Positions 16,800 to 40,869 of a stretch of 64,000 bases of DNA are shown here, in pieces. The stretch lies in IMG/VR virus record IMGVR_UViG_3300008050_000030, one strand, 5' to 3'. The notes under the pieces are model-generated. The model was not told where the DNA came from, did no database searches, and was given only the letters and a program-made list of their open reading frames with translations. How positions within the stretch are numbered: the first letter of the stretch is position 1; every line of letters starts with the position of its first letter. The stretch comes from a virus. The translations under genes were made by a program, and so were the position numbers.

Positions 16800-17759
16800 A
16801 TGCAGACCGACGACGAGCTGTACGCGAGCCTTGTGCTCCCCTGGGAGGCCGACAACGCCTCCTCCATCAACATCCAGGGCGCCGACGACCTCGACGCGGC
16901 GCTGACGATGGCGGACCTGGACTGGACCGCGGCGAGCCGCCCGCTCCTGTTCCGGGATCCCGACGACGAGACCAACCTGATCGAGGTGGAGACCCACAAG
17001 GCGGTGGTGCGGGAGGACACGCTGGACCAGATCGGCGTGGTCGGTGTCACCTACGAGATCGTGCAGAACCGAGAGGCTCTGTCCCTGCTCCGCGGCATCG
17101 CCGGCCGGGGCAAGGACCTCACCTTCGTCCGAGGAGGCACCTTCAAGGAGGGCCGGGTCGTCTGGGTGATGCTCAGCATCGACGACTTCCTCATCGAGCC
17201 GGTGCCGGGAGACGTGCTCATCCCCTACATCCTCATCTCGAACAGCCACAACGGCAGTCAGGGGGTGCGAGCCACGTTCTCGGCCCACCGACACGCCGGG
17301 CTGAGCGTGCACAACGTCGGTCGGGGGCTGAGTTTCCGGCACACGAGGCACGTGGTCGATCGGATGGAGCGCGGGGAGAGCGTCCTGGCCGCCGGGCTGG
17401 ACTCCTTCGAGCGGTTCCACGACTTCGCCCTCGACCTGGCGCAGCAACCGATGCCGCAGGAGGACTGGGAGGCCTTCCTGGACGCCTTCATCCCGCCCCC
17501 GGAGGAGGGAGTCCGCCCTGGGCGCCGCAACAAGGCCAGGGCGACGCTCACGCGCCTCTTCGAGTCCGGGCCGGGCACGGACATCCCGGGTGTCAAGAAG
17601 ACGCGCTGGGCGGCGCTCAACGCCGTCTCGCTGTGGCAGACGCACTTCGCCTCGTCCAAGGACGGGGAGAAGGCCCTGAACTCGCTCTGGTTCCAGAGCG
17701 GGGCGTCCAAGCTGGACGTGGCGGCAGGCCTGCTGAGGAAGCTGCACGCGGTGCGGTGA
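16800..17759 (+). CDS. DUF932-like phage/plasmid-associated protein
   Basis: ILISNSHNGSQGVRATFSAHR resembles the DUF932 core; last gene of the + block. Confidence 0.65.
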   Translation: MQTDDELYASLVLPWEADNASSINIQGADDLDAALTMADLDWTAASRPLLFRDPDDETNLIEVETHKAVVREDTLDQIGVVGVTYEIVQNREALSLLRGIAGRGKDLTFVRGGTFKEGRVVWVMLSIDDFLIEPVPGDVLIPYILISNSHNGSQGVRATFSAHRHAGLSVHNVGRGLSFRHTRHVVDRMERGESVLAAGLDSFERFHDFALDLAQQPMPQEDWEAFLDAFIPPPEEGVRPGRRNKARATLTRLFESGPGTDIPGVKKTRWAALNAVSLWQTHFASSKDGEKALNSLWFQSGASKLDVAAGLLRKLHAVR

Positions 17760-23526: not shown

Positions 23527-23891
23527 GACACCCCCTTCGCACGTTCCTGTGCGCGTTGCAGGTGGGCGGAGGTGATGACGGAGACCACGAACAGTTCGTG
23601 ATCGACCTCCATCAGCAGTTCCTTGCAGTAGTACCGGCTGCGCACGGCGTGCCGGGTCTTCCGTGCGCAGACGGGGTCATCGCCGTGGGCGCAGTCGACG
23701 ACGCAGTCGGAGTAGCGGTCAGCGTCCAGCTCTTCGGTGACGTCGAGGATCAGCTCGTAGCCCTGCACGGTGGAGACGAGGAGCCTCTGGCCCACCGCGG
23801 AGTGCGCGAACCCGTGCAAGGTCACGTCCTTGAGGTCCACGACGTCGCCGCCGAGGCGGGCTTCCAGCACTTTGGGAACGATCACGTCCAT
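23523..23891 (-). CDS. hypothetical protein (122 aa)
   Basis: GAGAAGGG SD; high GC3. Confidence 0.65.
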   Translation of the reverse strand: MDVIVPKVLEARLGGDVVDLKDVTLHGFAHSAVGQRLLVSTVQGYELILDVTEELDADRYSDCVVDCAHGDDPVCARKTRHAVRSRYYCKELLMEVDHELFVVSVITSAHLQRAQERAKGVS

Positions 23892-24274
23892 CCCTTCTCG
23901 AGCTTGATGCTCTTCTCGGCGAGGAGCACGTCGGCACGTCCGTAGCTCATGTCCATGACGAAGAGCATCAGGAGCTGGGCCAGCTCGGCCCCGTTCTCGG
24001 CGACTCGCAGGGACTGGAGCATGTGGTCGTACTTCCCCTTGTCCTGGGCCTGGTCGCGCAGCCGCCGGAAGGGCAGCCGTGCGGTGTGGGCCTCGTCCCG
24101 GAACACGGTGTCGGACAGCCCCCAGCTGTGCGCGAGGTTGCGCACGGTCTCGGGAAGCTGCTCGAAGCGGGCCCGAAGGTCCTCAGGCGAGAGCTTCTCG
24201 TCGGGGCCGACCACGGTGTCGTGGAAGGCGTTCACTCCGCCGCGATCGGCGAAGAGTTCATCGGTGGTCTGCAT
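23882..24274 (-). CDS. hypothetical protein (130 aa)
   Basis: TGATG coupling to upstream gene. Confidence 0.65.
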   Translation of the reverse strand: MQTTDELFADRGGVNAFHDTVVGPDEKLSPEDLRARFEQLPETVRNLAHSWGLSDTVFRDEAHTARLPFRRLRDQAQDKGKYDHMLQSLRVAENGAELAQLLMLFVMDMSYGRADVLLAEKSIKLEKGWT

Positions 24275-26719: not shown

Positions 26720-26995
26720 TGGTTCTCCGGGTTGGTGGTCTACGCCCCTTATCCCTCCCTCCAACTCTCAGTTGACGCTAAGGAGGGGCGCCACTCCCTC
26801 GACTGTCCCGGCGCACTCGCAACGGGACCAACACGAACTTCATGATCTTTGTCTCCAGGGGTGCGGTTGCCTTATCCCGCTGCGCACGCATGAAGGTGCA
26901 GGGGAGCGACCCTGGTGAAGGATCCCACGGGGAGGGTGTAGGGAGAGAGAGAGAGGGAGGGAGAGCAATGCTCGGGAGCCGGGATCTTGTCGAAC

Positions 26996-27187: not shown

Positions 27188-27205
27188 GAGCGCCGCGCGG
27201 CGCTC
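27188..27205. terminator. perfect palindromic hairpin GAGCGCCGCGCGGCGCTC
   Basis: 18-bp self-complementary sequence just after the stop of the 27205..27405 gene. Confidence 0.55.
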
Positions 27206-27405
27206 TAGTTCGAGGTGTCGGGCTCCTCGGCCTTGGGGGCCTCGGCCTCCTCGGCCTTGGAGAACTTGCCCTTGATCCAGGTGACGGCCTTGCCACCGGT
27301 GCGGGACCAGATCGGCATGGCGGCGACGCCGCTCAGGAAGGTGAGGGCCAGCACGAGGGCGAGCTTGACGAGGGACTGGGCGGTGAAGCGGGCGATGGTC
27401 TTCAT
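27205..27405 (-). CDS. small single-pass membrane protein (MKTIA-family paralog)
   Basis: MKTIARFTAQSLVKLALVLALTF; full promoter cassette upstream. Confidence 0.55.
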   Translation of the reverse strand: MKTIARFTAQSLVKLALVLALTFLSGVAAMPIWSRTGGKAVTWIKGKFSKAEEAEAPKAEEPDTSN

Positions 27406-27588
27406 GATCTTGACTCCAGGGGTTGGTAGGAACGCGTCGCAGAGAGCACTTGCTTCCTGGACACTTCTCTTATCCCCCCGTAGAGGGCTGATTTCACGAG
27501 ATCCGTATATCTCTGCGGCTATCTCAATTCCTGGGCGAGGGGCCTTCATGAGGTAACTGTGTAGTGGCCGCCGATTCAGGGCCCGGAT

Positions 27589-27733
27589 GCCAACCGCTTG
27601 TTGTACCCCCCGCCGGTCGGGGACTTAGGCGTCAACTGCTTGTTGTAGTGACCGCTGGTTTGGGACCTGGGTGCCAACTGCTTGTTGCTCCCATATACCT
27701 GGCCCGGAATCTGGAGTGACAACCACTTGTTGC
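27589..27733. repeat. four tandem direct repeats with about 42-bp period
   Basis: Cores CAACCGCTTGTTG 27591, CAACTGCTTGTTG 27633 and 27675, CAACCACTTGTTG 27720. Confidence 0.7.
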
Positions 27734-27796
27734 TAAGGACAATCGGCCGGGGACCCGGGGCAACGGCATGCAGCCATGTACCCCGGGTCCCAGATC

Positions 27797-28135
27797 TCAT
27801 CGGCCACAGCCAGAGCACTCCGTGAGGGGGAGCCCCTGCTGCTTCTCGTGCCGCACCAGCCGCGGGCTGGTGAGCACGATCTCGTTGCTGTGTCGCCGGT
27901 TCCACGGCATCCAGAGCCGGGTGCGCAGCTCCACGCAGTCTCCGGGGGAGACGACCTTCATGTCCTCGCGGAACACGGAGATCTGCGTACGTGTACGGGG
28001 CACCTCGTACGTGTAGGTCTTGGTCCCGTCCGAGAAGACGTAGACATCCCAGACCTTGTCCGGGGCGCCCTTCTTCTGACGGCGGGCGTCCACCTCGCGG
28101 GAGACGAGGTGGACGCTCAGGGTGACGGCAGCCAT
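27797..28135 (-). CDS. hypothetical protein (112 aa)
   Basis: TGATG coupled; C-terminal CSGCGR. Confidence 0.6.
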   Translation of the reverse strand: MAAVTLSVHLVSREVDARRQKKGAPDKVWDVYVFSDGTKTYTYEVPRTRTQISVFREDMKVVSPGDCVELRTRLWMPWNRRHSNEIVLTSPRLVRHEKQQGLPLTECSGCGR

Positions 28136-28497
28136 CAGCCCAAGGTCACGGTGTCGAGGACCTCGTACACCCAGGCCTCGTGATCCCGGGCCTCACCGCG
28201 CCAGACCTGCTCGTGGCGGAGCATGATCAGCGTGGCCAGGTGGCCAGGCTTGTCGAAGTCACCGAGACGCTCCAGGAGCTTCTCCTTCATCTCCTTCTGG
28301 TACGCGTGGTAGGTCTCGCGGTCGACGCCGTCCGAGAGGTCGATCAGCCAGATCGGTCGGCCGACGAGGTAGCCCTGCAGGCTCATGAGGTAGTTCCGCA
28401 GCTCCATGCGGCGACGCATGGCCCGTCCGAAGAGGCCGACGATTCCGAAGAGGCCGACGATGACGAAGGTGATGAGGAGGCGGGCGAGGGTCTTCAT
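28135..28497 (-). CDS. small membrane protein (MKT-family paralog)
   Basis: MKTLARLLITFVIVGLFGIVGLFG; full cassette upstream. Confidence 0.65.
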   Translation of the reverse strand: MKTLARLLITFVIVGLFGIVGLFGRAMRRRMELRNYLMSLQGYLVGRPIWLIDLSDGVDRETYHAYQKEMKEKLLERLGDFDKPGHLATLIMLRHEQVWRGEARDHEAWVYEVLDTVTLG

Positions 28498-28560
28498 AGT
28501 GAGCTCCAGGGGTGGTTGGTCTACTTCTCTTATCCCCCAGTGACAACTCCCAGTTGTCGC
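28498..28560 (-). promoter_or_regulatory. promoter/5'-UTR cassette
   Basis: Minus sense: GACAACTGGGAGTTGTC ... GGGGGATAAGAGAAGTAGACCAACCACCCCTGGAGCTCACTATG. Confidence 0.6.
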
Positions 28561-28753
28561 CCAACGCTAAGGGAGGGGGATTGGCGATCCCCTTAGCCCA
28601 GATCCCGAAGGAGCTGGTCCCATGAGAGGAAACCTCACCTGCGGCCGGGGCGTCCGGCCGGCGGGGATCGAACCCGCTCCTGTTCATGCCCAGCCCCCTG
28701 CTGCGTGTACGTGGAGGTGCCGGCCTCACCGCAGCAGGGGGTTTGTCGATCAC

Positions 28754-29194
28754 TCAGACGACCCGGAGGCCTCGGGGGTTGCCGGACTCGTCGAGGCCGA
28801 GGGCCGCGCGCTGCTCGGGACCGAGCATGCCGGCCTCCATGAAGGCGTCACGCATCTGCTCTCGGGGCAGCACACCCTCCCAGCGCCACTCGACGGTGCC
28901 GTTGGGGGCGATGTGGCGCTGGGTGTGCGCCACCTCTCCTGGCCGGGCGAGGGCGTGGCCCACGTGCTCCGCCGGCAGGCGGAAGAGCGCGTACCCGACG
29001 TCGAGCTCGACGGACCCGTCGGGGTAGACCGCGGCGACGCGGGCCTCGGTGGGCTGGTCGACGGTCATCGTCTCCGGCTTGGCGGCGGGCTTGGTGGGCT
29101 TGGCGGCGGGCTTGCGCCATCCCAGCAGGGTGACGATGGCTCCGAGGATGAAGCCGAGGATCACGGGGGCGAACAGACGGATGAAGGCCTTCAT
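28754..29194 (-). CDS. membrane protein with Lys/Pro-rich linker (MK-family paralog)
   Basis: MKAFIRLFAPVILGFILGAIV; AKPTKPAAKP linker. Confidence 0.65.
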   Translation of the reverse strand: MKAFIRLFAPVILGFILGAIVTLLGWRKPAAKPTKPAAKPETMTVDQPTEARVAAVYPDGSVELDVGYALFRLPAEHVGHALARPGEVAHTQRHIAPNGTVEWRWEGVLPREQMRDAFMEAGMLGPEQRAALGLDESGNPRGLRVV

Positions 29195-29255
29195 TGGAAA
29201 CTCCAGGGGTTGGTGGTCTACTCCTCTTATCCCGCCGTACCAACTGCCAGTTGCC
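29195..29255 (-). promoter_or_regulatory. promoter/5'-UTR cassette
   Basis: Stop TGA then GGCAACTGGCAGTTGGTACGGCGGGATAAGAGGAGTAGACCACCAACCCCTGGAGTTTCCAATG. Confidence 0.6.
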
Positions 29256-29852
29256 TCAGTCGTACAGGCCCAGCGCAGCGACGACCGCGTGCGCCTTCTT
29301 CAGGGTCTTCTCATCGACCGACCCCCCCGGGTCGATCGAGACCCGGATGTAGATGCCGCTCCGCTCGAGCTCGTAGTCTTCGACGTAGGGGAGCGCCCGC
29401 TCCTCGGGCTCCTCCTGCGTCTCATGCGCGCTTGCGACGGCCAGGGCGTCGCTGAGGTAGCAGTTGCACCGCGGCTCCTCCTCCCAGCTGTTCTGGTGGG
29501 TGCAGGCGTCACCGTGCGCCTGGTCCGAGTCGGAGACGCGCTGGAGCACGGCTCGGAGCAGCGCGATCGTGTGCGCCTCTTCGGAGGGCTCGGAGTAGGT
29601 CTTCTCCGCGTCGCCCATGGCGAAGATGCGAGCCGGCTTCGCATGCGTCCGGAGGATGTTCTGGATCGGCCTTCCCATGAGGAGGCCGGTGGAGTCCTTC
29701 ACGCCGAGGATCTCCCACCCCTCGCCTTCGAGATCTTCGACCGCCTCCTTTGCGATGACGGCGGGACCGGCGATGCCGACCTGCGCACTCGTGGTGCTGT
29801 GGCGGATCTGAAGGAGCTGGGTGCGGGTCAACAGGATGTCTTTGTCTGCCAT
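29256..29852 (-). CDS. hypothetical protein (198 aa)
   Basis: Cassette upstream; high GC3. Confidence 0.7.
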   Translation of the reverse strand: MADKDILLTRTQLLQIRHSTTSAQVGIAGPAVIAKEAVEDLEGEGWEILGVKDSTGLLMGRPIQNILRTHAKPARIFAMGDAEKTYSEPSEEAHTIALLRAVLQRVSDSDQAHGDACTHQNSWEEEPRCNCYLSDALAVASAHETQEEPEERALPYVEDYELERSGIYIRVSIDPGGSVDEKTLKKAHAVVAALGLYD

Positions 29853-29965
29853 GATCTTCTCCGGGGAAGGGGTTCACACCTCTTATCCCCCCATACCAAC
29901 TGGAAGTTGTCAGCTAAGCAGGAGCGAGGGGGGACCCTCGCTGCGACTGCTTTCGGCCCGCCCCC

Positions 29966-30285
29966 CTAGAAGGGGGACAGGTCTTCCAGCCCGGTTCCGA
30001 ACCGGGCCCGGACTGCGTCCCACACGCGGCACGCCGCGTAGTACGGCAGCCCAATGGGTGCCGTCACCACCAGCAGGGCGGCCATGCCCGCGCGCTGCCA
30101 GCCCGACTCCGACGAGTCGGAGGCGAACCCGACCCCGGTCCCGTACAGGGACCCGAGCATCCTCGTCACCGTGACGGTGATGAAGGAGGCGGCGGCGAGA
30201 GCCAGCGGCCGGAGCGCTGCCGTGAGGCAGCGGGTCAGCAGGGTGGCGATGAACTTGGCGAGGAACTTGGCGATGGTCTTCATAT
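29966..30285 (-). CDS. small membrane protein (MKTIA-family paralog)
   Basis: MKTIAKFLAKFIATLL; CCCTGGAGTTCGATATG context. Confidence 0.6.
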
Positions 30286-30563
30286 CGAACTCCAGGGAAC
30301 GAAGACGGCAGGGGCGCGAGAAAACCTCGCAAAGCCTCCTGTTGGTGACACTTCTCTTATCCCCGAAACACCCCCTTTTTCTGCACTTTGCAGCTGCCCT
30401 CACGCCTCCCCATCGAGCGGGTAAGTGTGCCCCTCGGCCCCGGTCAAGGGGCGCGTTTGACGGGCGGGCCGCCCGAGCTATTGCTCCCAGAGTCAGCCAG
30501 GGGTTATTGCCCCTGACCTGTCGCGCGGGGATCGAACCCGCCTCCCTTCACACCTGTCGTCAG

Positions 30564-31151
30564 CTACCCAGCCGGACTCGAACCGGCCCTTTCCTGGATC
30601 GTCTGCTCTCGGTACCAGCACCAGTAGGTCTCGGTGTGGTGCCGCCGCCATGGGTTGTGCCCTTCCGGCTTCGGCACCAAGTCCCAGGCGACCCCGCGGC
30701 TGTGGGTGCGCCGAGGCCGCTGCTTGCAGCCGGGGTCGGGGTCGTGGATGCCCCAGTACTCCGACTTCAGCGCGTAGCAGTAGACGCGGCCCCTCCCTCG
30801 GCCCCAGCGGATGGCCTGATCGATCTCCCAGGGCAGGTCCGCCTCGGCGATCTCAGGCAGGTACCCGTGCTCCTCCACCAGCCGAGTGAGCATCCTCTGG
30901 CCCAGCGCCCTCCTCTCTGCCTTCGTCATCGGGATGAGCGGAGGCCGGGAGGGGAACTTGGGGAGCTCGCCCTCCCAGAGCCGCTTGCAGTCCCCGCAGA
31001 CGTCCTCGGCGAAGATGGACTCGAGCGGGCGCTCGACAGGGTCCTTGGGCAGCGCGTTGTGGTCGACGCCGGCGATGTGCGCCTTGCCTGTGTTCCACGG
31101 GTCCTTCAGGCCGAGCTGGTACTCGGTACGCCGGGCCTGGATGAACCTCAT
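30564..31151 (-). CDS. Cys/His-rich hypothetical protein, possibly HNH-like
   Basis: CGDC...CYALKSEYWGIHDPDPGC...H..H; preceded by a 12-codon uORF. Confidence 0.6.
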   Translation of the reverse strand: MRFIQARRTEYQLGLKDPWNTGKAHIAGVDHNALPKDPVERPLESIFAEDVCGDCKRLWEGELPKFPSRPPLIPMTKAERRALGQRMLTRLVEEHGYLPEIAEADLPWEIDQAIRWGRGRGRVYCYALKSEYWGIHDPDPGCKQRPRRTHSRGVAWDLVPKPEGHNPWRRHHTETYWCWYREQTIQERAGSSPAG

Positions 31152-31188
31152 GTCGGCGTCTCGCGGTAGGTCACGCTCAGGGACATGC

Positions 31189-31395
31189 TCACTTCCTCTC
31201 GTGGGACCGTCGAAGACGCTCGGCGCGCTGCAGGACCCCGGGCCTGCGGGGGCCCAGGCGCAGCTCTTCCCCGAAGCGGAGTCCGCCCTCGTCGAGGATG
31301 AACTTCTTGTGGAAGCCCGGGCCGTAGCCCGAACTCGCTCGAGGGTTCCTGGACCCGTGGGGGATGCCGCGGGCTTCCCAGCTGGGAATGGTCAT
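31189..31395 (-). CDS. hypothetical basic small protein
   Basis: CCTGGAGATCTCACCATG context. Confidence 0.5.
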   Translation of the reverse strand: MTIPSWEARGIPHGSRNPRASSGYGPGFHKKFILDEGGLRFGEELRLGPRRPGVLQRAERLRRSHERK

Positions 31396-31817
31396 GGTGA
31401 GATCTCCAGGCAGGGCGGGTTCTCGCCGCGAATGACGGAACAGCAGAAGGTGATCGAGCGGACGGGCGGCAGGGTGTTGAACTGGCCGCCCTTGCAGTGG
31501 TAGTCGCCGCCGTTGCCGCGCTCCCGGTGCGAGCTCCCCTCCTCCAGCCAGAAGGACTCTCGGTTGATCTCGTACCCGGATCGAGGCAGCCAGGTCTCGA
31601 AGTTGTCGGTCGCGGTGTTGATGTAGACGGTGGCGTCGAGCTCGCGCTCCTCGGACAGCCGGGCCTCCTGGAAGATCCAGAGGATGCCGGCCAGCGCCCC
31701 GATGATGATCAGGGTGATGAGCAGATCCATGCCGCTCATCGAGCCCCCGCCACCGCCCGAGCTGTAGTCGTTGTAGTCCCCGCCACCGCCGCCCGAATCG
31801 AACATTCCATCAGCCAT
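31392..31817 (-). CDS. Gly-rich N-terminus + TM helix protein
   Basis: SGGGGGDYNDYSSGGGGG then DLLITLIIIGALAGILWIF; AAGGAGAAGACCGATG. Confidence 0.65.
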   Translation of the reverse strand: MADGMFDSGGGGGDYNDYSSGGGGGSMSGMDLLITLIIIGALAGILWIFQEARLSEERELDATVYINTATDNFETWLPRSGYEINRESFWLEEGSSHRERGNGGDYHCKGGQFNTLPPVRSITFCCSVIRGENPPCLEISP

Positions 31818-31990
31818 CGGTCTTCTCCTTGTTGTGCGCGGTCACGCCCCGGCTGCGATGACGGCGACGAAGCCCGGGTCGGGACCGAAGTACCAGTAGA
31901 TCCGAGCACTCTTCCTTCTTGCCGAGTTCGATCACGTCTGTCTCCAGTTGGGTGTACCCGCCTTATCCCGTGAACAACTGTCGGTTGCTA

Positions 31991-32061
31991 ATCAGCGAGG
32001 GGGACTCGAACCCCCAACATCTCCTTTGCGCGGGAGGGCTCTACCATTGAGCTATCTCTGA
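31991..32061 (-). tRNA. tRNA-like gene with defective anticodon arm
   Basis: Canonical D-arm TAGCTCAATGGTAGAGC and T-arm GGGGGTTCGAGTCCCCC; acceptor stem with one A-G mismatch; anticodon arm is only CTCC/GGAG with an 8-nt loop lacking U33; no encoded CCA. Confidence 0.5.
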
Positions 32062-32097
32062 CACTCTTCTTATCCCCTCAACAACTCCCAGTTGACG

Positions 32098-32298
32098 CTA
32101 AGCGCAGAGCCCCTCGAAGAGGGGGTGCGCAGTCGTCTCAGGACAGATCGGAGAGCACGAGGAGGACCAGCCAGCGCCGGCCCCCTCACGCCAGATGACG
32201 TAGTCCTTGCCTTCGTGGCGGTGGGTCCCGCATCGGCGGGCGGTGCGGGGCGGCTTGTCCACGATCACCGCCACCCCCAGCCGGGTCTTGACCCTCAT
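32098..32298 (-). CDS. small Cys/His protein (66 aa)
   Basis: ATGA-coupled; stop TAG lies inside the CTTAGC element. Confidence 0.5.
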   Translation of the reverse strand: MRVKTRLGVAVIVDKPPRTARRCGTHRHEGKDYVIWREGAGAGWSSSCSPICPETTAHPLFEGLCA

Positions 32299-32766
32299 CC
32301 CGCGAAGTGGGTGAAGCGCGCTTCGCCCGTCTTCTCTTGGGGAGCGAGCGCGCCTGCGATGATGCGCTGAACCTGCCGCGCCATCAGGCGGAACCGGAAG
32401 TAGTCGATCCACTCGTGCTCGCGCTGGTGGTCCCGCAGCTCGAGCAGGGGCAGGGCCGCCTGGCAGAACTTGACCGCCAGCTCGGGGTTGACCACGGCGA
32501 CGGCCGCCACCATGTCCACCACGGCCTGTCCGTGGACGACGTGGATGCGCTCCCACCACGCGATGTTCTCCTCCCGCGAGGCGCCCGGGACGTCGGCGAA
32601 GACGTCCCGGTTGTCCTCCGTGATCTGATCGACGGCGGGTCGGGCGTCGGGGCAGGCGTCCAGCAGGACGTCGAAGAAGTCCAGCAGGAAGCCGTGGGTG
32701 CAGGAGTGGTCGTTGGCCAGCAACAGGCGCTGGAACTTCTCGGTCGGGTTCTCTTCGTTGAGCATG
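32295..32766 (-). CDS. hypothetical protein (157 aa)
   Basis: Cassette GGGATAAGGAGATCACAACCCTGGAGGAGCACATG. Confidence 0.65.
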
Positions 32767-32873
32767 TGCTCCTCCAGGGTTGTGATCTCCTTATCCCGCC
32801 GGACCCGCATCGGTTGCTAAGAGCGAGCGTCCACCGGACCCAGGAACCACGAGGGTTCCTGGGTCCGAGGACT

Positions 32874-33582
32874 TCAGCTCGCTGCCCGGGCGGAGAACCG
32901 CAGGACCCCCGGCTTGGCGACGTCCAGGAGTCCCTCGGCCCGCCACCGGAAGACGGTGGCCCTCTCGTTGAGCATCGTCGCCGTGCGGGTCGCGGCGTAC
33001 TGCTGCGCGGCGTACTCTTCTGCGGGACGGAGGAGAGCCGCCCATGCCTGCTCGTCGTACGGCAGCTCGAGCTCGAACTTCGCGTCCCCTGGGTCCGAGT
33101 CCGGGGGCGAGCCGGCGGCTTCCCACTCCGCGTAGAGGGCCTCGTCCTCGGCCACTACTTTCTGCAGCCTCTCCTGGAGGTCGGTGGTGTCCCAGTAGGC
33201 CGAGACGGCCTTGCGCGCCTCCTCGCGCTCGACCTTCTCCTTGGCTGCTGCGCGCTCTCGCCCCAGCGCGGCCTCGTGCCGCTCCAGGGCGCCGGCCGTC
33301 ATGGCCTTGATGTCTTGGAAGGCCGCAGCGGTGGCCTTGGCCACGATGGCGCGGTGGTGTCCCCGCAGGGCCTTGGCCAGGTCCGCGGAGATGGCCTTCT
33401 CTGAGAAGGTGGGGCCGTCGTCCACCTTCAGGGTGAGGCCGTCGCCGTCGTCCACGTAGAGGAGGAGCTTCAGGCAGCTCCCCTCGAACTTGCACTCGAG
33501 GTCGCAGAGGTCGACCTTCCACTCTCCGGGGAGGGCGTCGGCCGCGTCGAAGAGGGCGTCGAGGATGGTCTTCTTGCTCATG
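32874..33582 (-). CDS. hypothetical protein (236 aa)
   Basis: Cassette with CCCCCGGAGATCATCATG. Confidence 0.65.
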
Positions 33583-33647
33583 ATGATCTCCGGGGGTTGT
33601 GGTCTGCTTCTCTTATCCCTCCGCGGCAACCCCCAGTTGACGCTAAG

Positions 33648-33680
33648 AGAGGAGGGGCAGCCGTAGCCGCCCCTCCTCTC
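33648..33680. terminator. GC-rich hairpin
   Basis: GAGGAGGGGC-AGCCGTAG-CCGCCCCTCCTC between stop and next cassette. Confidence 0.55.
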
Positions 33681-33697
33681 CCTCGGCCGCCGCCGTC

Positions 33698-34225
33698 CTA
33701 CATGTCGTCGAAGCCGGCCGCCGCCGGCTCGTCGTCGGACACCCACTGGGTGCCCTCGGCGGCCTCGTCGGCGGGGACCGTGAAGGAGTCGGCCACCGCC
33801 TCGCGGCGGCGGCGCTCCTCGGCCAGGAAGGACGACGCCTGCGCCGCCTCGGCCTGCAGACCCGCCATGCGGGCGCGCATCTCCTCCATCTCCATCGCGA
33901 TGGCCTCCTGGCCGTTGCCGATGACCTCGAGCGCCGGGCGCTCGAGGCCGAAGATGGCGCTGACGGTGTCGTGGGCGGCGACGGCGGGGATCCCCGCCTC
34001 CGTCATCGTCGCGAAGGCCTTCGCGAAGGCCGTCGCCTTCGCCGTCGCCACCTCGACGCTCTGGAGGCGCACCTGGTGCACCCCCATCACGATGCCGGTG
34101 ATGGCGGACGTACCGAGCGTCACGAGGCTGGTGGCGTGTGCGAGTTCGTCTTCGAGGCGGGCCTTGCGCTCCTCGCGCTCGAGCTCCATCTCCTTGCGGC
34201 GGGCAGCGATCTGGTCCTTGGTCAT
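33698..34225 (-). CDS. hypothetical Ala/Glu-rich coiled-coil protein
   Basis: CCTGGAGACTGAGACCATG context. Confidence 0.65.
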   Translation of the reverse strand: MTKDQIAARRKEMELEREERKARLEDELAHATSLVTLGTSAITGIVMGVHQVRLQSVEVATAKATAFAKAFATMTEAGIPAVAAHDTVSAIFGLERPALEVIGNGQEAIAMEMEEMRARMAGLQAEAAQASSFLAEERRRREAVADSFTVPADEAAEGTQWVSDDEPAAAGFDDM

Positions 34226-34314
34226 GGTCTCAGTCTCCAGGTCGAGGGGAAGTTGAAGTCCTCGACACCTCTCTTATCCCTCCAACAACCGCCAGTTGCA
34301 CTCGGATCTAAAAG

Positions 34315-34385
34315 TTGAAAAACAAGCTCTCGGCGATGCCCAGGCCGAACGATCTCACCGAGAGCAGTCCTGATTGAGTGCGTTC
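34315..34385 (-). ncRNA. candidate small RNA with its own cassette promoter and a U-tract terminator
   Basis: GGGGGATAAGGAGAACG promoter copy at 34381-34396; 8-bp stem GCTCTCGG/CCGAGAGC (34326-34365) followed by TTGTTTTTCAACTTTTAG; no ORF. Confidence 0.35.
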
Positions 34386-34424
34386 TCCTTATCCCCCGAA
34401 ATCGGGGAGTTGCCGATCGGGGAG

Positions 34425-34455
34425 GAGGGACCTAGATCCCTCCTCCCCTTCTCCG
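34425..34455. terminator. GC-rich hairpin downstream of the kinase gene
   Basis: GGGGAGGAGGGA-CCTAGATCC-CTCCTCCCC. Confidence 0.55.
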
Positions 34456-34562
34456 CGGGCAGGCACCGAGGCGGGGTACAGACTCCACGCCTTCTGTTCG
34501 TGCGGGTCGCCCTCAGCCACGCTCTCGGGCATGAGTCCCGCCCTGCGGACTTTCGATCGAAC

Positions 34563-35012
34563 TCAGCCCCTATCCCAAGGAGGCACGGGGTTGCCGGCTC
34601 CCCAGGGGTGCTCCCACCTGGACCGCATGCGGCGAATCGCGTCCAGAGGGACCCCATGGCTGTTCCGCTTGAACAGCTGCTCGTCGGTGAGCCCTCCGTC
34701 GAAGAGGTCGACGATGAAGGTCTTCAGGCGGAGAGGGGAGTCGGAGAGCTGGAGGTAGGGCTCCAGCTCCCACCGAGTGCTGAAGGTGTTGGCCACCGCG
34801 GTGATGGGCTGCCCGGCCAGGACCGACTCCTGGGCGCCCTTGATGCACTGGGCGTGGGCCTGCGCCAGCTCCTGCGGCTTGAAGGTGTACGTGCCGTCCT
34901 CCGCGGTGAAGTAGTCGTCGGCCGAGAAGATGGCGGCGTCGAGGAGGTGAGCGAAGGAGGTCTTCCCCGAGCCGGGGAGGCCTCGAACGAGAATCAAGAT
35001 CTGGTCAGTCAT
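34563..35012 (-). CDS. P-loop kinase (AAA_33 / polynucleotide-kinase-like)
   Basis: ILVRGLPGSGKTSFAHLL Walker A near N-terminus; about 150 aa; ATGA-coupled. Confidence 0.7.
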   Translation of the reverse strand: MTDQILILVRGLPGSGKTSFAHLLDAAIFSADDYFTAEDGTYTFKPQELAQAHAQCIKGAQESVLAGQPITAVANTFSTRWELEPYLQLSDSPLRLKTFIVDLFDGGLTDEQLFKRNSHGVPLDAIRRMRSRWEHPWGAGNPVPPWDRG

Positions 35013-35134
35013 CCGAGCACCAGGGCGAGGAGAGCCAGCACCCCGAGGAGGGAGAGCCAGGGGAGGGAGACGATGAGCACGATGAAGAGCACCGTGTTGC
35101 GGGCGACGCGGCGGAGGTAGCGGAGGAGGCGCAT
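35009..35134 (-). CDS. possible 41-aa membrane peptide
   Basis: MRLLRYLRRVARNTVLFIVLIVSLPWLSLLGVLALLALVLG; weak RBS. Confidence 0.3.
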   Translation of the reverse strand: MRLLRYLRRVARNTVLFIVLIVSLPWLSLLGVLALLALVLG

Positions 35135-35142
35135 GGGTTGTC

Positions 35143-35778
35143 TCAGAGGACCGAGACGCCGCACAGCTCCCAGAGAGGCTGCGTGGTGATGTCGAGGACA
35201 TCGACGAGGCGGGCCAGCGCAGTGGCGCTGAGCTCGCGGACGTTCCAGTTCAGGGACACCTGGGTCTCCATCTCTCCGTGCCGCGGCCCGTTCACCCAGG
35301 ACTCCTCGGGGATGGGCCCGGGGCCGCGGTGGGTCGAGGAGCGGTCCAGGTGCGGGCGCTCGTCCATGTTGGTGAGTCGGCAGCCCTCGGACGCGGCCAG
35401 CTCCCGAATCTGCTTCCAGGTCTCGGCCTCGGCATCGAAGGCGATGAACTCCGTGGACAGGTCGATCATCTCCTTCTTCTCGGTCCACAGCCCGTAGACG
35501 CGCCAGCGCGACCGGCGGGCGACGACGTCCTGGAGCGGGCGGACGCGGGCCAGGAAGGCGCGCTCGCCGTCGGAGAGGTGCAGGAACTCCTCGGTCTGGT
35601 AGTGGAGGCGGATGGCCTCTCGCCACGCCGGAGAGTCGAGGCCGGCAGGTTGCTCGGGCGGCCACGTCAGGTTGGCGGCCTTGGCCAAGTCGGGCAGGTG
35701 GCAGGTGGAGACGTCGCGGAGGTACTCACCGTGGCGGTGAATCTCCCCGATGCTGTTGATGTGGAGACCGATCTGCAT
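35143..35778 (-). CDS. hypothetical protein (211 aa)
   Basis: High GC3; preceded by a 200-bp lower-GC leader carrying the TATACCTGCGAGAT box. Confidence 0.7.
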   Translation of the reverse strand: MQIGLHINSIGEIHRHGEYLRDVSTCHLPDLAKAANLTWPPEQPAGLDSPAWREAIRLHYQTEEFLHLSDGERAFLARVRPLQDVVARRSRWRVYGLWTEKKEMIDLSTEFIAFDAEAETWKQIRELAASEGCRLTNMDERPHLDRSSTHRGPGPIPEESWVNGPRHGEMETQVSLNWNVRELSATALARLVDVLDITTQPLWELCGVSVL

Positions 35779-35983
35779 TCATGTCCCTCGGTAAGCATTG
35801 TGGAGGTCGGGCCGACGATCGCATCGGAAAGTCTGTTGTGTCTTGTGCACGTCCGTCCTCTAGCAACCTCCTTATACCTGCGAGATCACAGCACTTTCAG
35901 GGCTAAAGATGCGGTCCTTTCGGTCCTAGATCGAGGTCACGACTCCTCTTGAAGTGATCACCTGTGGTTTTGATCTACTCTAT

Positions 35984-36166
35984 TTATGCCTCCAGGCGCC
36001 CGCGGATTTCACTCCGCAGGCGCCCATCAGCACGTTCTCTCAGCCGCCCCGTCAGGACGTAGATGACCTCGCCGATCGGGCGGGCGACGAGGTTGTGGGC
36101 GGTCCACTGCAGCCGGCGGGGAAGCCGGTCGAGCAGCGGGGCGAAGAAGCCAGTCTTCTGTTCCAT
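35984..36166 (-). CDS. hypothetical small protein
   Basis: CCTGGAGATCTGATG context; its stop lies inside a motif copy GGCATAAATAGAGTAGATC. Confidence 0.45.
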   Translation of the reverse strand: MEQKTGFFAPLLDRLPRRLQWTAHNLVARPIGEVIYVLTGRLRERADGRLRSEIRGRLEA

Positions 36167-36224
36167 CAGATCTCCAGGTAGGTAGGTGGTCGTCCTACTT
36201 ATCCAGGAAATCCGCCCACTTTCA

Positions 36225-36875
36225 TCAGCCGAGGGTGAGCCACTTCTCCTCGTACGCGGCGATGGCCTTGCACTCCTCCTCGATCTTGCCGAGGAGTTCG
36301 TCCGCCCCCACCGAGAGCCCCTCGAGCCCCTCGAGCATGTCCCGGTACCGCCGGTTGCCGCCGGCGAGGTTCCGCACGAAGCGGTGCGAGGACACCGGCG
36401 GCTTCGGCGCGTGCGACCCGATGATGTTGATGAGGGCGTGCGTCGCCCCCATCTCGGTGAAGGCGTCCCGCGCCGCCTGGGTGACTTGGCGGTCGGCGAG
36501 GAACGCGTCCGCCGTGTACACCACCGCCCCCACGAAGGCGGGGGTCAGGTCGGCGCCCTTCTTCTGGAACCAGGCGCGGTCTCCGACGAGGACCACCTCG
36601 CCCCGGTGGATCCGCGGCTTGAACATCTCCGGCTGCGGCACGGCGGGCCGCTCGATGGCGCCCGACACGACCATGTCGTACGCCCAGGCGGGCAGGGGCA
36701 CCATCTCCTGGCCGTTCTCCGGGAACTTGAACTCTGCGGCGGCCTCCGCCACGACATCCTGGATTTCGTGGTGGCGCCCGTCCGCGCAGAGGAACGAGGG
36801 GTCCATGACGGTGCCGACGGCGCCGCCGCCGATCTGGTCGAGGGCGAGGGGGTGGGTGAAGAGATTCATGGTCAC
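36225..36875 (-). CDS. hypothetical protein (216 aa)
   Basis: CGGAGACGTGACCATG context; high GC3. Confidence 0.7.
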   Translation of the reverse strand: MTMNLFTHPLALDQIGGGAVGTVMDPSFLCADGRHHEIQDVVAEAAAEFKFPENGQEMVPLPAWAYDMVVSGAIERPAVPQPEMFKPRIHRGEVVLVGDRAWFQKKGADLTPAFVGAVVYTADAFLADRQVTQAARDAFTEMGATHALINIIGSHAPKPPVSSHRFVRNLAGGNRRYRDMLEGLEGLSVGADELLGKIEEECKAIAAYEEKWLTLG

Positions 36876-36937
36876 GTCTCCGTGCCGGGGGAAGTTAGGG
36901 TCCCAGCACTCCTCTTATCCCTCCGTTGATCCCTAAA

Positions 36938-36979
36938 CGACGAAGGGCGCCCCACCAGTCGGTGGGGCGCCCTTCGTCG
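36938..36979. terminator. long GC hairpin
   Basis: CGACGAAGGGCGCCCCACC-AGTC-GGTGGGGCGCCCTTCGTCG. Confidence 0.6.
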
Positions 36980-36997
36980 GTGTCGCTCGGCGGAGGG

Positions 36998-37477
36998 TCA
37001 GGCGGCCTTGGCTTCTCGCGCCTTCTTGGCCTTCTTGGCCCGGCAGGTGCGGCAGTGGGACTGCGCGGCGACGCGGACCTTCTCGCCCTCCTTCTTCGTC
37101 TTCGTCTTCATGTTGCGGTAGCCGAACATCTTCGCGATGTCGCCCGTCTCGTTGCAGCTGGGGCAGGTCTTCTCGCCCGTCGGCCCACCCGTCGGCGTCT
37201 TCCGCTTCGCCGGCGTCTTCTTCGCCTTGGCCTTCTTGGCCGGCGCCTTCTTGGGCTTGGCGGCCGGGGCCTCGTCCGCGGCCAGCAGCTTGGTCAGCCG
37301 CGTCTGCGCGGGCTTCACGACGAGGACGCGGGCCTCTCGGGGCTCCACGCCGGCGTCGGTGTCCCCGACGAGGGCACGCAGCACATCGACGTTGTCCTCC
37401 TTGCGGACGGCGTTGCGGGCGTCGACGCCCCGCATGCCCAGGATCTCGGTGATGCGGTCTTCGGTGGTCTGGCTCAT
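36998..37477 (-). CDS. lysine-rich nucleoid-associated-like protein with C-terminal zinc ribbon
   Basis: AKPKKAPAKKAKAKKTPAKRK tract; CPSC...CRTC; N-terminal SAP/Rho_N-like helix. Confidence 0.7.
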   Translation of the reverse strand: MSQTTEDRITEILGMRGVDARNAVRKEDNVDVLRALVGDTDAGVEPREARVLVVKPAQTRLTKLLAADEAPAAKPKKAPAKKAKAKKTPAKRKTPTGGPTGEKTCPSCNETGDIAKMFGYRNMKTKTKKEGEKVRVAAQSHCRTCRAKKAKKAREAKAA

Positions 37478-37501
37478 GGTCTGGCTCCGGTGTGGGTTGA
37501 T

Positions 37502-37530
37502 CTGCGGATCTTGACAGCCAAGATCTGCGA
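37502..37530. promoter_or_regulatory. imperfect palindrome GCAGATCTTGGC-T-GTCAAGATCCGC
   Basis: 12-bp arms with 2 mismatches, upstream of the nucleoid-protein gene; contains TTGACA on the + strand. Confidence 0.45.
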
Positions 37531-37554
37531 TTGCAACTAAGAGGATCGGGTTTC

Positions 37555-37582
37555 GGCGGCCCCCCGAAAGGAGGGCCGCCGG
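37555..37582. terminator. GC hairpin
   Basis: CGGCGGCCC-CCGAAAGGAG-GGCCGCCG after the stop of the 2H phosphoesterase gene. Confidence 0.55.
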
Positions 37583-37588
37583 CAGGGG

Positions 37589-38059
37589 TTAGAGGGAGAC
37601 GGTCTCGCCCAGCTCGGTGCCGGGCTCGAACGCTGGGCCCACCGAGCTGAACGGGCTGCCGTCCTTGTTGACGAGGCTCAGGTGGAAGACCCGCCCCTCG
37701 TCGATCACGGGGATGCCCATGGCCCCCAGCAGGCGCATGCGCCAGCTGTGCCAGAGGGGCTGGTCCTGGAGCCTGCAGGCCCAGGACCATCGACCCGACT
37801 CCAGTTGCTGGAGCTGGGCCGAGAGCTCGATGCTCGCCCTCGGCGGGGCGGGCAACTCGTCCTCTCGTCCCACCCACGACTTGAGGATGTCGCGGTGGGG
37901 CTTGAGGCTCCCGAAGCTGCACACCGTGACGTGCAGCTTCCCGGCCGGGAGGGGAACACCTTCCTGGTCGGTGATGATCGCCTGCTGGAGGCGCGAGGCC
38001 TCCGCCAAGGCACCGACCCCTACGCCGACACCGATGAAGGTCTTGGAGATGCGCAGCAT
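37589..38059 (-). CDS. 2H phosphoesterase (LigT/CPDase-like)
   Basis: Two H-x-T/S-x motifs (LHVTVCSF and VFHLSLVN); AAGGAGG SD; TGATG-coupled. Confidence 0.7.
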   Translation of the reverse strand: MLRISKTFIGVGVGVGALAEASRLQQAIITDQEGVPLPAGKLHVTVCSFGSLKPHRDILKSWVGREDELPAPPRASIELSAQLQQLESGRWSWACRLQDQPLWHSWRMRLLGAMGIPVIDEGRVFHLSLVNKDGSPFSSVGPAFEPGTELGETVSL

Positions 38060-38358
38060 CACGCCTCCTTCTTCGGTGCGGGCTTGGGGTTGGCGGCCAG
38101 GTGCGCCTGGTGGCGCAGGTGCGCGTCCACGCCCTGGGCGTGCTCCTCCGCCTCCGTCTTGTTGTAGAAGATCTCCCCCGTCAGGGGGTCCTCGTAGGAG
38201 GCCGCCATCTGGGTCTGGCGGCGGAGGGAGGCACCCAGGCTGTCGGTCCAGGAGGCCCGCTTCTCGCGGGCCTCCCGGCTGAAGAAGACCTTGTAGATGA
38301 TGCCGGCGCAGGCGGAGTAGACGGCCACGATGAGCAGCCGGAGAGCGAGTTTCTTCAT
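38059..38358 (-). CDS. small membrane protein (MKK-family paralog)
   Basis: MKKLALRLLIVAVYSACAG; cassette GGGATAAGAGGAGTACACCCCCTACCTGGAGATCTCATG. Confidence 0.6.
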   Translation of the reverse strand: MKKLALRLLIVAVYSACAGIIYKVFFSREAREKRASWTDSLGASLRRQTQMAASYEDPLTGEIFYNKTEAEEHAQGVDAHLRHQAHLAANPKPAPKKEA

Positions 38359-38396
38359 GAGATCTCCAGGTAGGGGGTGTACTCCTCTTATCCCTG
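38359..38396 (-). promoter_or_regulatory. start-associated cassette
   Basis: GGGATAAGAGGAGTACACCCCCTACCTGGAGATCTCATG. Confidence 0.6.
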
Positions 38397-38399
38397 ATC

Positions 38400-38879
38400 T
38401 CAGGGGCAGTTCTCGTTCACGAACTCACGAGCTTCATCGGGCCGCAACTCGGCCCCGAAGTAGTCCTCCCGGGCGAAGGTCGTCTCCACGAGATCGTGTC
38501 CGTGGCGCCCCCAGCTGTGGGATCGCCAGACCCCGTCGTCGAGGCAGTATCCGGTGATGAGGACGAGCCTCTCGTCGAGAAGCCACTCGTGGGAGATGTT
38601 GGAGTGGCAGCGTCCGGCCTCCCCCTCCCGGAGCTGGATCTTCTCCGGGCGGTAGGGCTGGCCGCGCTCGAGGAGGATCTTCAGATGCTCCTCGATGCCG
38701 TTGACGCAGATCTCTTCCCCTCCCTCAGCGAGGAGCACCTCCCGCAGTCTTGCCAGCGCCGGCTGCACGCGTAGGGCGCTCTCGTACCTCGATCTCAGGA
38801 AGGTCAGTTGTCGTGGGGTCATCAGGCAGTCGTTGCTGAAGGAGTCGTTGAGCGCGCTTCGGCTCGGTTCCGAAGGCAC
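38400..38879 (-). CDS. hypothetical protein (GTG 38879 or ATG about 38822)
   Basis: Strong GC3; +1 frame relative to the 3' tail of the sigma factor ORF. Confidence 0.55.
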   Translation of the reverse strand: MPSEPSRSALNDSFSNDCLMTPRQLTFLRSRYESALRVQPALARLREVLLAEGGEEICVNGIEEHLKILLERGQPYRPEKIQLREGEAGRCHSNISHEWLLDERLVLITGYCLDDGVWRSHSWGRHGHDLVETTFAREDYFGAELRPDEAREFVNENCP

Positions 38880-39816
38880 CGCGCACTGCGCCGGCGGAGA
38901 CGCCGGGAGGGAGCACGGTCTCGGTCAAGATCTCGTAGGACTCCGCCATCCCGGCCAGAGAGCCTTCCAGCTCTCGGACACGGGCGCGCAGAGCCGCCAC
39001 GGTGTACAGGTCGTCCTCGGTCATTCCCTCCGCCATCTCGGCCATCTTCTTCATGGCCCGCAGCTCAAGTTGTCGTACACGTTCGCGAGTCAGGCCCATG
39101 TCGGTCCCGACCATCTCCAGGGAGTCGCCTTCCTTCACGAGCGAGGGGTGGCCGCCAGGAAGCATCCTTCGCCGAAGGATGATGTACCGCTCTCTCGCCG
39201 GAAGAGCCCCCAGGAGCATGCGGACGACCAGTTCTCGTCGAGAGGCTCGCCACTGGATGTCGTAGGCGTCCTCGGGGGTGTGTCGGTCGATGAACAGCTG
39301 GTGAGGAGGGCGGTCCTCGTCCCCCAGATCTTCTCGCTGCTCCCACCGCAGAACGGCCTGGAGCCGGATGAGGTCCTCCACGGGGCGGCCCACATCCTTG
39401 GACAGGCTCTCCATGAACTTGTCGTCTCCCAGGGTCTCCGAGACGGAGTTCCCGGTCTTCATCATGTGCCGGGTGATGCGAACCAAGGCCGCTTGTGCCC
39501 AGGAGGAGCGAGTGGCCTTGAACTGGTCCTTTTCGAGGCGGCGGTAGCGCTGGAGAAACGCCTTGATCCAGTGGTAGCAGTAGGTGGACAGGCGGGCCTT
39601 CTCGGGGTCGTACTTCAGCACGGCTCGGTGGAACCCCATGGCGACCTCCTGGAAGGCGTCATCCGGGTCCAGACCCTTGCCGTGCGTGTGCACCATCTTC
39701 CAGAACAACTGCACGTACGAGCGCGTGAGCGTGTTCATGGCGTTCGAGTCCCCCGCCTGTGCAGCGCGAGCAAGCCGGTCCTGCTCCTCTGCCGGGAAGG
39801 GAGGTAAGGGGGTCAT
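38725..39816 (-). CDS. RNA polymerase sigma factor, sigma-70 family
   Basis: Region 2 (STYCYHWIKAFLQRY) and region 4 (GLTRERVRQLELRAMKKMAE); GCTGGAGGTGCCGATG context; coding GC3 fades after about 38880. Confidence 0.8.
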   Translation of the reverse strand: MTPLPPFPAEEQDRLARAAQAGDSNAMNTLTRSYVQLFWKMVHTHGKGLDPDDAFQEVAMGFHRAVLKYDPEKARLSTYCYHWIKAFLQRYRRLEKDQFKATRSSWAQAALVRITRHMMKTGNSVSETLGDDKFMESLSKDVGRPVEDLIRLQAVLRWEQREDLGDEDRPPHQLFIDRHTPEDAYDIQWRASRRELVVRMLLGALPARERYIILRRRMLPGGHPSLVKEGDSLEMVGTDMGLTRERVRQLELRAMKKMAEMAEGMTEDDLYTVAALRARVRELEGSLAGMAESYEILTETVLPPGVSAGAVRGAFGTEPKRAQRLLQQRLPDDPTTTDLPEIEVRERPTRAAGAGKTAGGAPR

Positions 39817-39830
39817 CGGCACCTCCAGCG

Positions 39831-40756: not shown

Positions 40757-40869
40757 CTCGAGCCTCCAGGGGTAACAATGCCCTTATCCCGCGCAGATCC
40801 GCGCATTGCTAAGCGAGGGCCCACCCCACGGTGGGGTAGTCGCCGTGCGGCGGGCCCTGCTTCGGATCC

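Follow-up and report, generated by a model that had tools for sequence, protein, structure and literature searches.

Five small genes in a minus-strand block

The window analysed here is a stretch of 64,000 nucleotides filed in IMG/VR as IMGVR_UViG_3300008050_000030, which corresponds to bases 19895-83894 of the 188,377-bp ENA metagenome contig ERZ27249009 k141_382418. Its source is an uncultured phage of about 188 kb and 66% GC (the window itself has a GC content of 66%), and PHROG matches to two ATP-dependent DNA-ligase-like genes, a PAPS-reductase-like gene, an endolysin-like domain and a sigma factor mark the DNA as that of a phage. A gene map based on GC content at third codon positions (GC3) shows one unbroken minus-strand block at about 18.2-44.2 kb, and inside it lie five small genes, named g1 to g5 by position. 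The initial annotation had taken these for a paralogous family of single-pass membrane proteins, formed by duplication of a promoter-leader-signal-anchor module that was joined to a different effector domain in each copy. What the evidence leaves of this claim is an array of a general, putative promoter cassette in a novel high-GC phage, driving small membrane ORFans that are unrelated to each other. The five genes are as follows.

27205-27405, minus strand: g1, 66 amino acids, starts MKTIARF, predicted transmembrane (TM) segment at about residues 12-32 (open reading frame (ORF), GC3, hydropathy)
28135-28497, minus strand: g2, 120 amino acids, starts MKTLARL, predicted TM segment at about residues 7-24, then RAMRRRMELR (ORF, GC3, hydropathy)
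28754-29194, minus strand: g3, 146 amino acids, starts MKAFIRL, predicted TM segment at about residues 7-25, then a Lys/Pro-rich linker and a C-terminal domain (ORF, hydropathy)
29966-30283, minus strand: g4, 105 amino acids, starts MKTIAKF, amphipathic N-terminus and two marginal hydrophobic segments (ORF, hydropathy)
38059-38358, minus strand: g5, 99 amino acids, starts MKKLALR, predicted TM segment at about residues 8-26 (ORF, hydropathy)

All five are present where they had been annotated, apart from one end of g4 that is corrected by 2 nt from 30285 to 30283. Their coding signal is strong, with GC3 values of 0.93-0.98, and the source contig yields identical calls. In g1, g2, g3 and g5 a basic n-region leads into a hydrophobic h-region of some 15 residues or more; Kyte-Doolittle windows (KD19) give 2.08-2.45 for the N-terminal segment, and the single-pass arrangement claimed for all five would hold for these four genes. 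It is not clear for g4, in which the two hydrophobic segments are marginal (1.67 and 1.62) and the amphipathic N-terminus carries K2, K6 and K10. The TM segment of g1 is followed by a basic flank and an acidic tail, and a single-sequence AlphaFold2 (AF2) model of g2 is a confident helix only at the N-terminus (residues 2-46). From hydropathy and charge we infer membrane insertion of the predicted anchors and their topology; since the flank after the TM segment is more basic than the N-terminal tail in g1-g3 (+4 to +5 vs +2), the soluble parts of these three proteins may face the cytoplasm. None of g1-g5 matches a family in Pfam, PHROG or PADLOC.

A putative promoter cassette repeated through the block

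Each of the five genes is preceded by the motif GGGATAAGAG(A/G)AGT, as had been claimed, and the motif belongs to a composite cassette that is not peculiar to them. The array and its copies at g1-g5 were located by motif scans.

18509-42423, minus strand: cassette array of about 20 copies through the whole non-structural block
27463-27476, minus strand: promoter motif of g1 (GGGATAAGAGAAGT), followed by a non-canonical leader of 57 nt
28523-28536, minus strand: promoter motif of g2, with the palindrome CAACTGGGAGTTG upstream and the canonical leader AGACCAACCACCCCTGGAG
29220-29233, minus strand: promoter motif of g3, canonical leader
30350-30363, minus strand: promoter motif of g4, followed by a leader of 66 nt that begins GTCACC
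38381-38394, minus strand: promoter motif of g5, short leader

The core sequence GGGATAAG has 21 exact sites in the window, all on the minus strand, where 0.40 would be expected, and the 14-mer with up to two mismatches has 13 sites against 0.58 expected. The sites are intergenic and lie between 18.5 and 42.4 kb. A canonical copy reads (hairpin)-CTTAGC-(G)TCAACTGGGAGTTG-N5-7-GGGATAAGAG(A/G)AGT-AGACCACCAACCCC(T)GGAG-N5-8-ATG. Its upstream part is often a GC-rich, terminator-like hairpin followed by CTTAGC. It continues with a -35-like element (CAACTNNNAGTTG or TGCAAC, a weak CAAC element lying 17-19 nt upstream of GGGATAAG), the -10-like element GGGATAAGAG(A/G)AGT and a conserved leader, AGACCACCAACC, which would be transcribed. 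A Shine-Dalgarno (SD) sequence, CC(T)GGAG in canonical copies, stands 5-8 nt (about 6) before the ATG. The motif lies at about 18-80 nt from the start codon and is separate from the SD. Very stable upstream hairpins (dG -38 to -44 kcal/mol, z -3.5 to -6.6) are found at about a third of the copies (40789, 36920, 34394, 33618 and 32796; that at 32075 is weaker), and no strong upstream hairpin is present at g1, g3, g4 or g5.

Of the roughly 20 cassette-led units, five are those of g1-g5 and about 15 others are non-membrane; the cassette stands mostly before soluble proteins, among them those starting MALPPDL, MPRAPGK, MADKDIL, MSKKTIL, MTKDQIA and MNLFTHP. The canonical short leader is used by g2, g3 and g5 and likewise by the soluble-protein controls. 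The cassette is thus the putative general promoter of the whole minus-strand block, a plastic, non-structural region of about 20 short transcription units, rather than an attribute of g1-g5.

One further copy bears on what the cassette does, because it stands before an RNA gene.

31991-32061, minus strand: tRNA-like gene (Rfam tRNA, 45 bits; ARAGORN), with a cassette motif at 32063-32076, 1-2 nt before it

This copy precedes a tRNA-like RNA that has no ORF, which suggests that the cassette has a role in transcription rather than translation, and the distance of 1-2 nt would place the transcription start just after the terminal AGT of the motif. Promoter function and start site are accordingly putative for the array as a whole and are read from the sequence. 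A scan for the sigma-70 consensus found no such promoter at the cassettes. A likeness of the motif to the -10 element of sigma-28 promoters (GCCGATAA) was set aside, as no TAAA -35 element is evident in the upstream sequences, which were read by eye with no formal scan. A candidate reader of the promoter is encoded in the same block.

38725-39822, minus strand: phage-encoded sigma factor of the sigma-70 family, in which only regions 2 and 4 are present (PHROG/Pfam-type profile matches)

This protein shares at most 33% identity with cellular RpoS/RpoD-type proteins. It could read the cassette promoter or be a product of these promoters. The start of its gene is uncertain, the JGI call giving 337 amino acids and the maximal ORF 365, and a weaker cassette variant (40783-40790) lies upstream of it.

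The tRNA-like element has peculiarities of its own. Its anticodon loop is of 8 nt, for which ARAGORN gives a four-base anticodon, 'cgca'. In the homologous element of a sister phage (locus L005, about 4137-4210) the acceptor, D and T arms are kept, the anticodon arm consists of a 4-bp stem capped by a GCAA tetraloop, and no tRNA is called there by ARAGORN. The element may be a tRNA-like RNA and not a decoding tRNA.

Relatives in sister phages

No near relative of the phage was found in INPHARED (megablast of window positions 27-39 kb, no match), and searches of IMG/VR with a 19-mer of promoter and leader and with two window proteins found nothing. Sister phages were recovered by other routes: locus L002 through a sigma fragment of 48% identity, and loci L005, L027, L035 and L038 by a metagenome scan with the promoter-leader pattern, their conserved genes being 67-87% identical to the window at the nucleotide level. 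Contigs known for the sister genomes are Ga0080013_1002674, Ga0080013_1005993, Ga0255047_10000297, Ga0255047_10002402 and Ga0496600_003784 (JGI 3300050007). From the window and these loci, counted as five related genomes, 55 GGATAAG cassettes were collected, all on the gene strand and with a common core and leader. L005, in which 14 cassettes stand within 9 kb, is the equivalent of window positions 36 to 26 kb.

The five genes have separate relatives. The orthologue of g1 (L005 7123-7281, 42% identity) starts MTAIARA. For g4, exactly two relatives were found among 1.84 billion representatives, P0053 and P0054 (the latter being L005 6693-7031); in both the C-terminal motif LPxWAA..W.AIQ..TG.GL is kept and the start is not (MVAILSR and MNAFLKA, respectively), and the L005 gene has the same leader type as g4. 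Syntenic orthologues of g5 occur in L002 (MKIVARI; E = 7e-8) and L038 (MKALARV), and both keep the promoter and the stop/start overlap with the downstream gene. The only candidate for g3 is weak (L005 2328-2696, E = 0.002, starts MTRILVA). Homologue searches for g2 and g3 returned nothing or the query alone, and g2 is an ORFan.

Gene order around the cassettes differs between the phages. The orthologues of g4 and g1 are adjacent in L005, and four genes stand between the two in the window; the L005 g1 orthologue has no promoter of its own and is therefore taken to be co-transcribed with the g4 orthologue. The orthologue of 32874-33581 and the g3-like gene lie on the opposite side of the tRNA-like element in L005 compared with the window. 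These differences indicate that cassette-led units have been shuffled, and they are consistent with cassette-mediated shuffling. The g5 orthologue of L002 keeps promoter and leader and has the start ATGAAAATTGTCGCT, from which it follows that the regulatory part and the coding start evolve separately.

Five genes, at least four lineages

Nothing aligns between the five proteins past residue 7, and their C-terminal parts are unrelated, as had been described. In an all-against-all BLASTP within a five-sequence database the best pair is g1-g4 (44% over 32 residues, E = 0.012), and once residues 1-7 are removed nothing is found (best E 1.2-1.7). Comparison of family profiles by hhalign gives 0.5% for g1 against g4 and 1.3% for g1 against g5. 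The TM segments show no similarity to each other. Nor does conservation run from the promoter into the first codons at the DNA level, as had been proposed: the SD-to-ATG spacers (5-8 nt) differ in all five genes, the leaders of g1 and g4 are unrelated to the canonical leader and to each other, and CCTGGAGATC occurs at g5 only. The five genes thus lack homology to one another, and g1, g4 and g5 each have an orthologue set of their own in which the shared start is not kept. They are not one paralogous family but at least four lineages of fast-evolving accessory ORFans.

The shared start of g1, g2 and g4

What remains of the likeness is a start of seven residues in three of the genes. The common beginning MK(T/K)(I/L)A(R/K)(F/L) claimed for all five is borne out for g1, g2 and g4, whose common MKT(I/L)A(R/K)(F/L) is encoded by the same codons; in g3 and g5 the likeness ends with the initial MK. 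The test proposed by the initial annotation, comparison with composition-matched shuffles, divides the genes in the same way. None of 5000 shuffles reaches the similarity of g1, g2 and g4, even with MK fixed and residues 3-7 shuffled, and g3 and g5 have nothing in common with the others beyond MK. Their codons at the start also differ and are rare ones (CGT in g3; AAA, GCT and CGG in g5).

Over codons 2-8 the three pairs rank first to third in nucleotide identity among the 6328 gene pairs of the window (g1-g2 17/21, g1-g4 16/21, g2-g4 16/21). Significance was assessed with column-permutation nulls, which keep the position-specific composition and correct for the search over genes. The best single pair has a corrected P of 0.025-0.053, and the three-way match has a corrected P of 0.005 when drawn from all 113 genes, 0.011 from the 12 genes with a hydrophobic N-terminus and 0.026 from the 13 MK genes. 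Most of the identity at the DNA level is due to codon bias, as AAG, ATC and TTC make up 0.98, 0.96 and 0.99 of their codon families and leave little choice at K, I and F. A search of the window with the pattern ATGAAGRMNHTCRYC gave 4 matches against 0.01 expected and was not counted as evidence, because the pattern had been fitted to the genes.

The heptad is found outside this phage. The 21-mer ATGAAGACC(A/C)TCGCCCGC(C/T)TC has 19 occurrences in 596 Gb of genomes, of which about 10 are genuine starts of unrelated signal peptides and lipoproteins from diverse bacteria, which makes the heptad a legitimate n-region, though an uncommon one. In the sister phages, about half of the small membrane ORFs fit the wider pattern M-[KTN]-x-hydrophobic-[AIL]-[RK]-hydrophobic, among them MTAIARA, MTTLIRF, MKIVARI, MKALARV and MNAFLKA.

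Explanations for the likeness

The reading that we favour, with confidence slightly better than even, is that an array of cassettes resembling the promoter-early stem-loop (PeSL) elements of T4-type phages drives unrelated signal-anchor ORFans, and that the likeness of their starts comes from three independent layers stacked on one another. The first layer would be the common promoter, leader and SD; the second, the ATG-AAG (MK) beginning that is frequent at gene starts; and the third, a narrowly constrained signal-anchor n-region, M-[KT]-x-hydrophobic-[A/I]-[R/K]-hydrophobic, for which the choice of codons is extremely biased. Each transcription unit would be headed by the same composite cassette, with transcription starting right after the -10-like motif, and five of the cassettes would happen to drive small proteins with an N-terminal signal-anchor. 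The heptad of g1, g2 and g4 would then be mainly a matter of convergence, an unlikely but not extraordinary draw from the narrow distribution of n-regions.

Several observations weigh against this reading. The match is improbable by each of the measures given above (0/5000 shuffles, the top three of 6328 pairs, corrected P of 0.005-0.026). The same codons are used at T, A and R despite usage of 0.57, 0.54 and 0.43, an agreement with a probability of about 0.013 given amino-acid identity. The membrane ORFs of L005 have no repeated heptad although the cassette is the same, which means that constraint alone does not force the heptad. Finally, g1-g4 lie within 3.1 kb, an arrangement that would also suit local duplication or recombination.

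These observations are the ground for a second explanation, which is unlikely but is the one that best survives among the rivals. It is a weakened form of the module idea, in which only the first 5-11 codons of g1, g2 and g4 (ATGAAGACC(A/C)TCGCC...) would have been copied between loci as DNA, through gene conversion, or through recombination that starts in the repeated promoter/SD cassette, so that the 5' ends evolve in concert and the gene bodies are unrelated. The three-way match and the identical synonymous codons argue for it, as does the absence of any comparable repeat in L005. The g4 orthologues are without the heptad, which must then have arisen in the present lineage. Cassette units have moved between the window phage and L005 (the adjacency of g4 and g1, and the side of the tRNA-like gene on which 32874-33581 lies), and PeSL cassettes are documented as mediators of such exchanges (PMC2839356, PMC4122927). 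Against copying stands the lack of a continuous tract of identity, since the spacers differ in length and sequence and the leaders of the three genes are unrelated. The identical run is only 15-21 nt long and consists wholly of preferred codons, and the IAR of g1 is already present in the L005 orthologue, so that part of the motif is ancestral to g1.

A functional extension of the same idea is improbable. Here the cassette itself would reach into codons 1 to 5-11, and the patch from promoter and leader through ATG to 'MKTIA(R/K)F' would be copied by cassette-seeded recombination, homogenising the membrane-targeting starts of unrelated ORFans or newly supplying them. If this were true, g2, which has no homologue anywhere, would be a newly built gene, and the process would be the analogue, in a virus of prokaryotes, of 5'-exon shuffling as a source of membrane proteins.

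Pure coincidence is less credible still. The heptad match would be the extreme tail of some 6300 gene-pair comparisons, and chance does produce pairs of nearly this quality. Two unrelated soluble proteins of the window, encoded at 16800-17759 (plus strand) and 23882-24274 (minus strand), share only their first nine residues, MQT(D/T)DEL(Y/F)A, with 7/9 amino acids and 15/21 nt of codons 2-8 identical, and for the best single heptad pair the corrected P is just 0.03-0.05. The closure of the match in three ways (P = 0.005-0.026) and the independent agreement at synonymous sites (P of about 0.013) count against chance.

A signal in the mRNA is given even less weight. On this explanation AAGACC(A/C)TC after the ATG would be selected as the initiation context of the shared leader, an unstructured, A-rich start in a 66%-GC genome, and the likeness would belong to the RNA rather than the protein. 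Of 113 genes, 13 have K at residue 2, and KT is found at residues 2-3 more often than any other pair; the soluble gene 32874-33581 opens with MSKKTIL, encoded as AAGAAGACCATC; and the synonymous sites of the three heptads use the same codons. Most cassette-led genes start otherwise, however, and the sister phages share the leader, yet the starts and codons of their orthologues differ, as in ATGAAAATTGTCGCT in L002.

The full module model, with five paralogues, is the least probable and is already largely refuted: all five genes do have the cassette, MK, a hydrophobic N-terminus and unrelated C-termini, and four of them lie within 3.1 kb, but the cassette also heads some 15 non-membrane units, neither TM segments nor family profiles are related, g3 and g5 share MK alone and in different, rare codons, the g4 orthologues are without the start motif and the g1 orthologue is without its own promoter.

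Coupled partners of g2 and g5

Two of the five genes overlap a downstream gene by TGATG, g2 with 27797-28135 and g5 with 37589-38059.

27797-28135, minus strand: partner of g2, 112 amino acids, match to phrog_9988, a family of unknown function (PHROG; no other family)
37589-38059, minus strand: partner of g5, 156 amino acids, previously labelled a 2H phosphoesterase (two invariant HxT/S motifs)

The coupling of g5 that had been reported is real, and the enzymatic label of its partner is left with two HxT/S motifs as its basis. H43-T45 and H126-S128 are invariant across three orthologues, and no orthologue has a Pfam 2H match at E <= 10. The partner has no PHROG or PADLOC match, a profile search of PDB sequences returned only a spurious haemoglobin match (E = 0.29), and the single-sequence AF2 model is unusable (pLDDT 35). 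The pairing is kept in the sister loci, with an ATGA overlap in L002 and TGATG in L038. This suggests that g5 with 37589-38059, a conserved pairing, and g2 with 27797-28135 are pairs of a membrane anchor and a soluble partner. Judged from sequence, g2 and g5 may tether these partners at the membrane, and translational coupling to soluble proteins would fit a cytoplasmic placement of the soluble parts.

Other features of the window

A second conserved leader class follows the promoter with GTGTCG(R)GGAC...CTTCCCC(T)CGAC(Y)(Y)GGAG and is capable of folding into a 5' stem-loop (TCGAGG/CCTCGA). It is found in the window at 36875-36921 and 34226-34280 (minus strand), in L002 at 2454-2505, in L038 (minus strand) and in L005 at 861-914, and recurs before orthologues of 36225-36869 and 33698-34225 in several phages. 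A cassette at 26871-26878 with a good SD drives only a 21-codon ORF, MKFVLVPLRVRRDSRGSGAPP (26778-26843, minus strand), which is followed directly by the next cassette, at 26755; just upstream of the first of these two cassettes is a low-complexity tract rich in CT (about 26900-26960). Two ARAGORN calls on the minus strand are probably false positives. A tRNA-Pro(cgg) at 29953-30029 lies over the 3' end of g4, in a stretch that encodes the conserved g4 C-terminus, and a 95-nt tRNA-Thr(ggt) at 30563-30657 lies over the 3' end of a protein gene; both are below the Rfam threshold. The two ATP-dependent DNA-ligase-like genes (phrog_114) are separate, at 5057-6991 (plus strand, E = 4e-25) and 58316-59797 (minus strand, E = 8e-13).

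Implications and comparison with known systems

As first stated, the module finding would have described how new membrane effectors can arise when a regulatory-plus-targeting module is joined to arbitrary domains. The cassette array that takes its place would extend the record of composite promoter/leader cassettes and of cassette-wise gene shuffling well outside the T4-like phages, and provides a well-defined putative promoter motif with a probable transcription start for an uncultured phage group. The two pairs of anchor and coupled soluble protein (the HxT/S protein for g5, the phrog_9988 protein for g2) are candidates for host-takeover functions, and the heptad of g1, g2 and g4 is a small case in which gene 5' ends have either converged or evolved in concert on a micro-scale.

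Among the small membrane proteins that phages make early, Imm, Sp and rI of T4 and the Sie-type exclusion proteins of lambdoid phages are examples that are single-pass, poorly conserved and expressed from early-type promoters in plastic regions. The products of g1-g5 are of the same small accessory type, with no match to any PHROG, Pfam or PADLOC family. Their starts resemble the n-regions of Sec/YidC-type substrates, in which a short basic N-terminus (here K2 and R/K6) stands straight before 18-22 hydrophobic residues, and the heptad MKT(I/L)AR(L/F) likewise heads unrelated signal peptides and lipoproteins in many bacteria.

For the cassette, one comparison is with the SAS/ESAS elements of Cluster K mycobacteriophages, in which a 13-bp motif, GGGATAGGAGCCC, includes the SD and stands 3-7 bp before the start codon (Pope et al. 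2011, PMC3203893). Both are asymmetric repeats of the GGGATA type that occur in one orientation, are confined to non-structural genes, often have an inverted repeat upstream and are conserved across phages before unrelated gene families. An identification of the cassette as a Cluster K-type SAS was nevertheless rejected, as its motif is farther upstream, its SD is separate and one copy precedes a tRNA-like RNA.

The closest known system appears to be that of the PeSL cassettes, which in T4-type phages comprise a stop/stem-loop, promoter, SD and start, stand before ORFans in hyperplastic regions and mediate modular shuffling (Arbiol et al. 2010, PMC2839356; Comeau et al. 2014, PMC4122927). The present cassette differs in that its sequence is unrelated and without a detectable sigma-70 consensus promoter, that a transcribed leader of about 12 nt is also conserved and that strong hairpins are found at only about a third of the copies; unlike the T4-type phages, its carrier is a high-GC phage for which searches of INPHARED and IMG/VR found no relative. 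Like PeSL, it is a short composite motif present in tens of copies, in one orientation and between genes of a plastic, non-structural region; it runs from an upstream stop, with a stem-loop at some copies, through the putative promoter to the SD and start codon, mostly before ORFans; and the gene order around it varies between related phages. The kinship of the two systems would thus be one of architecture and genomic behaviour.

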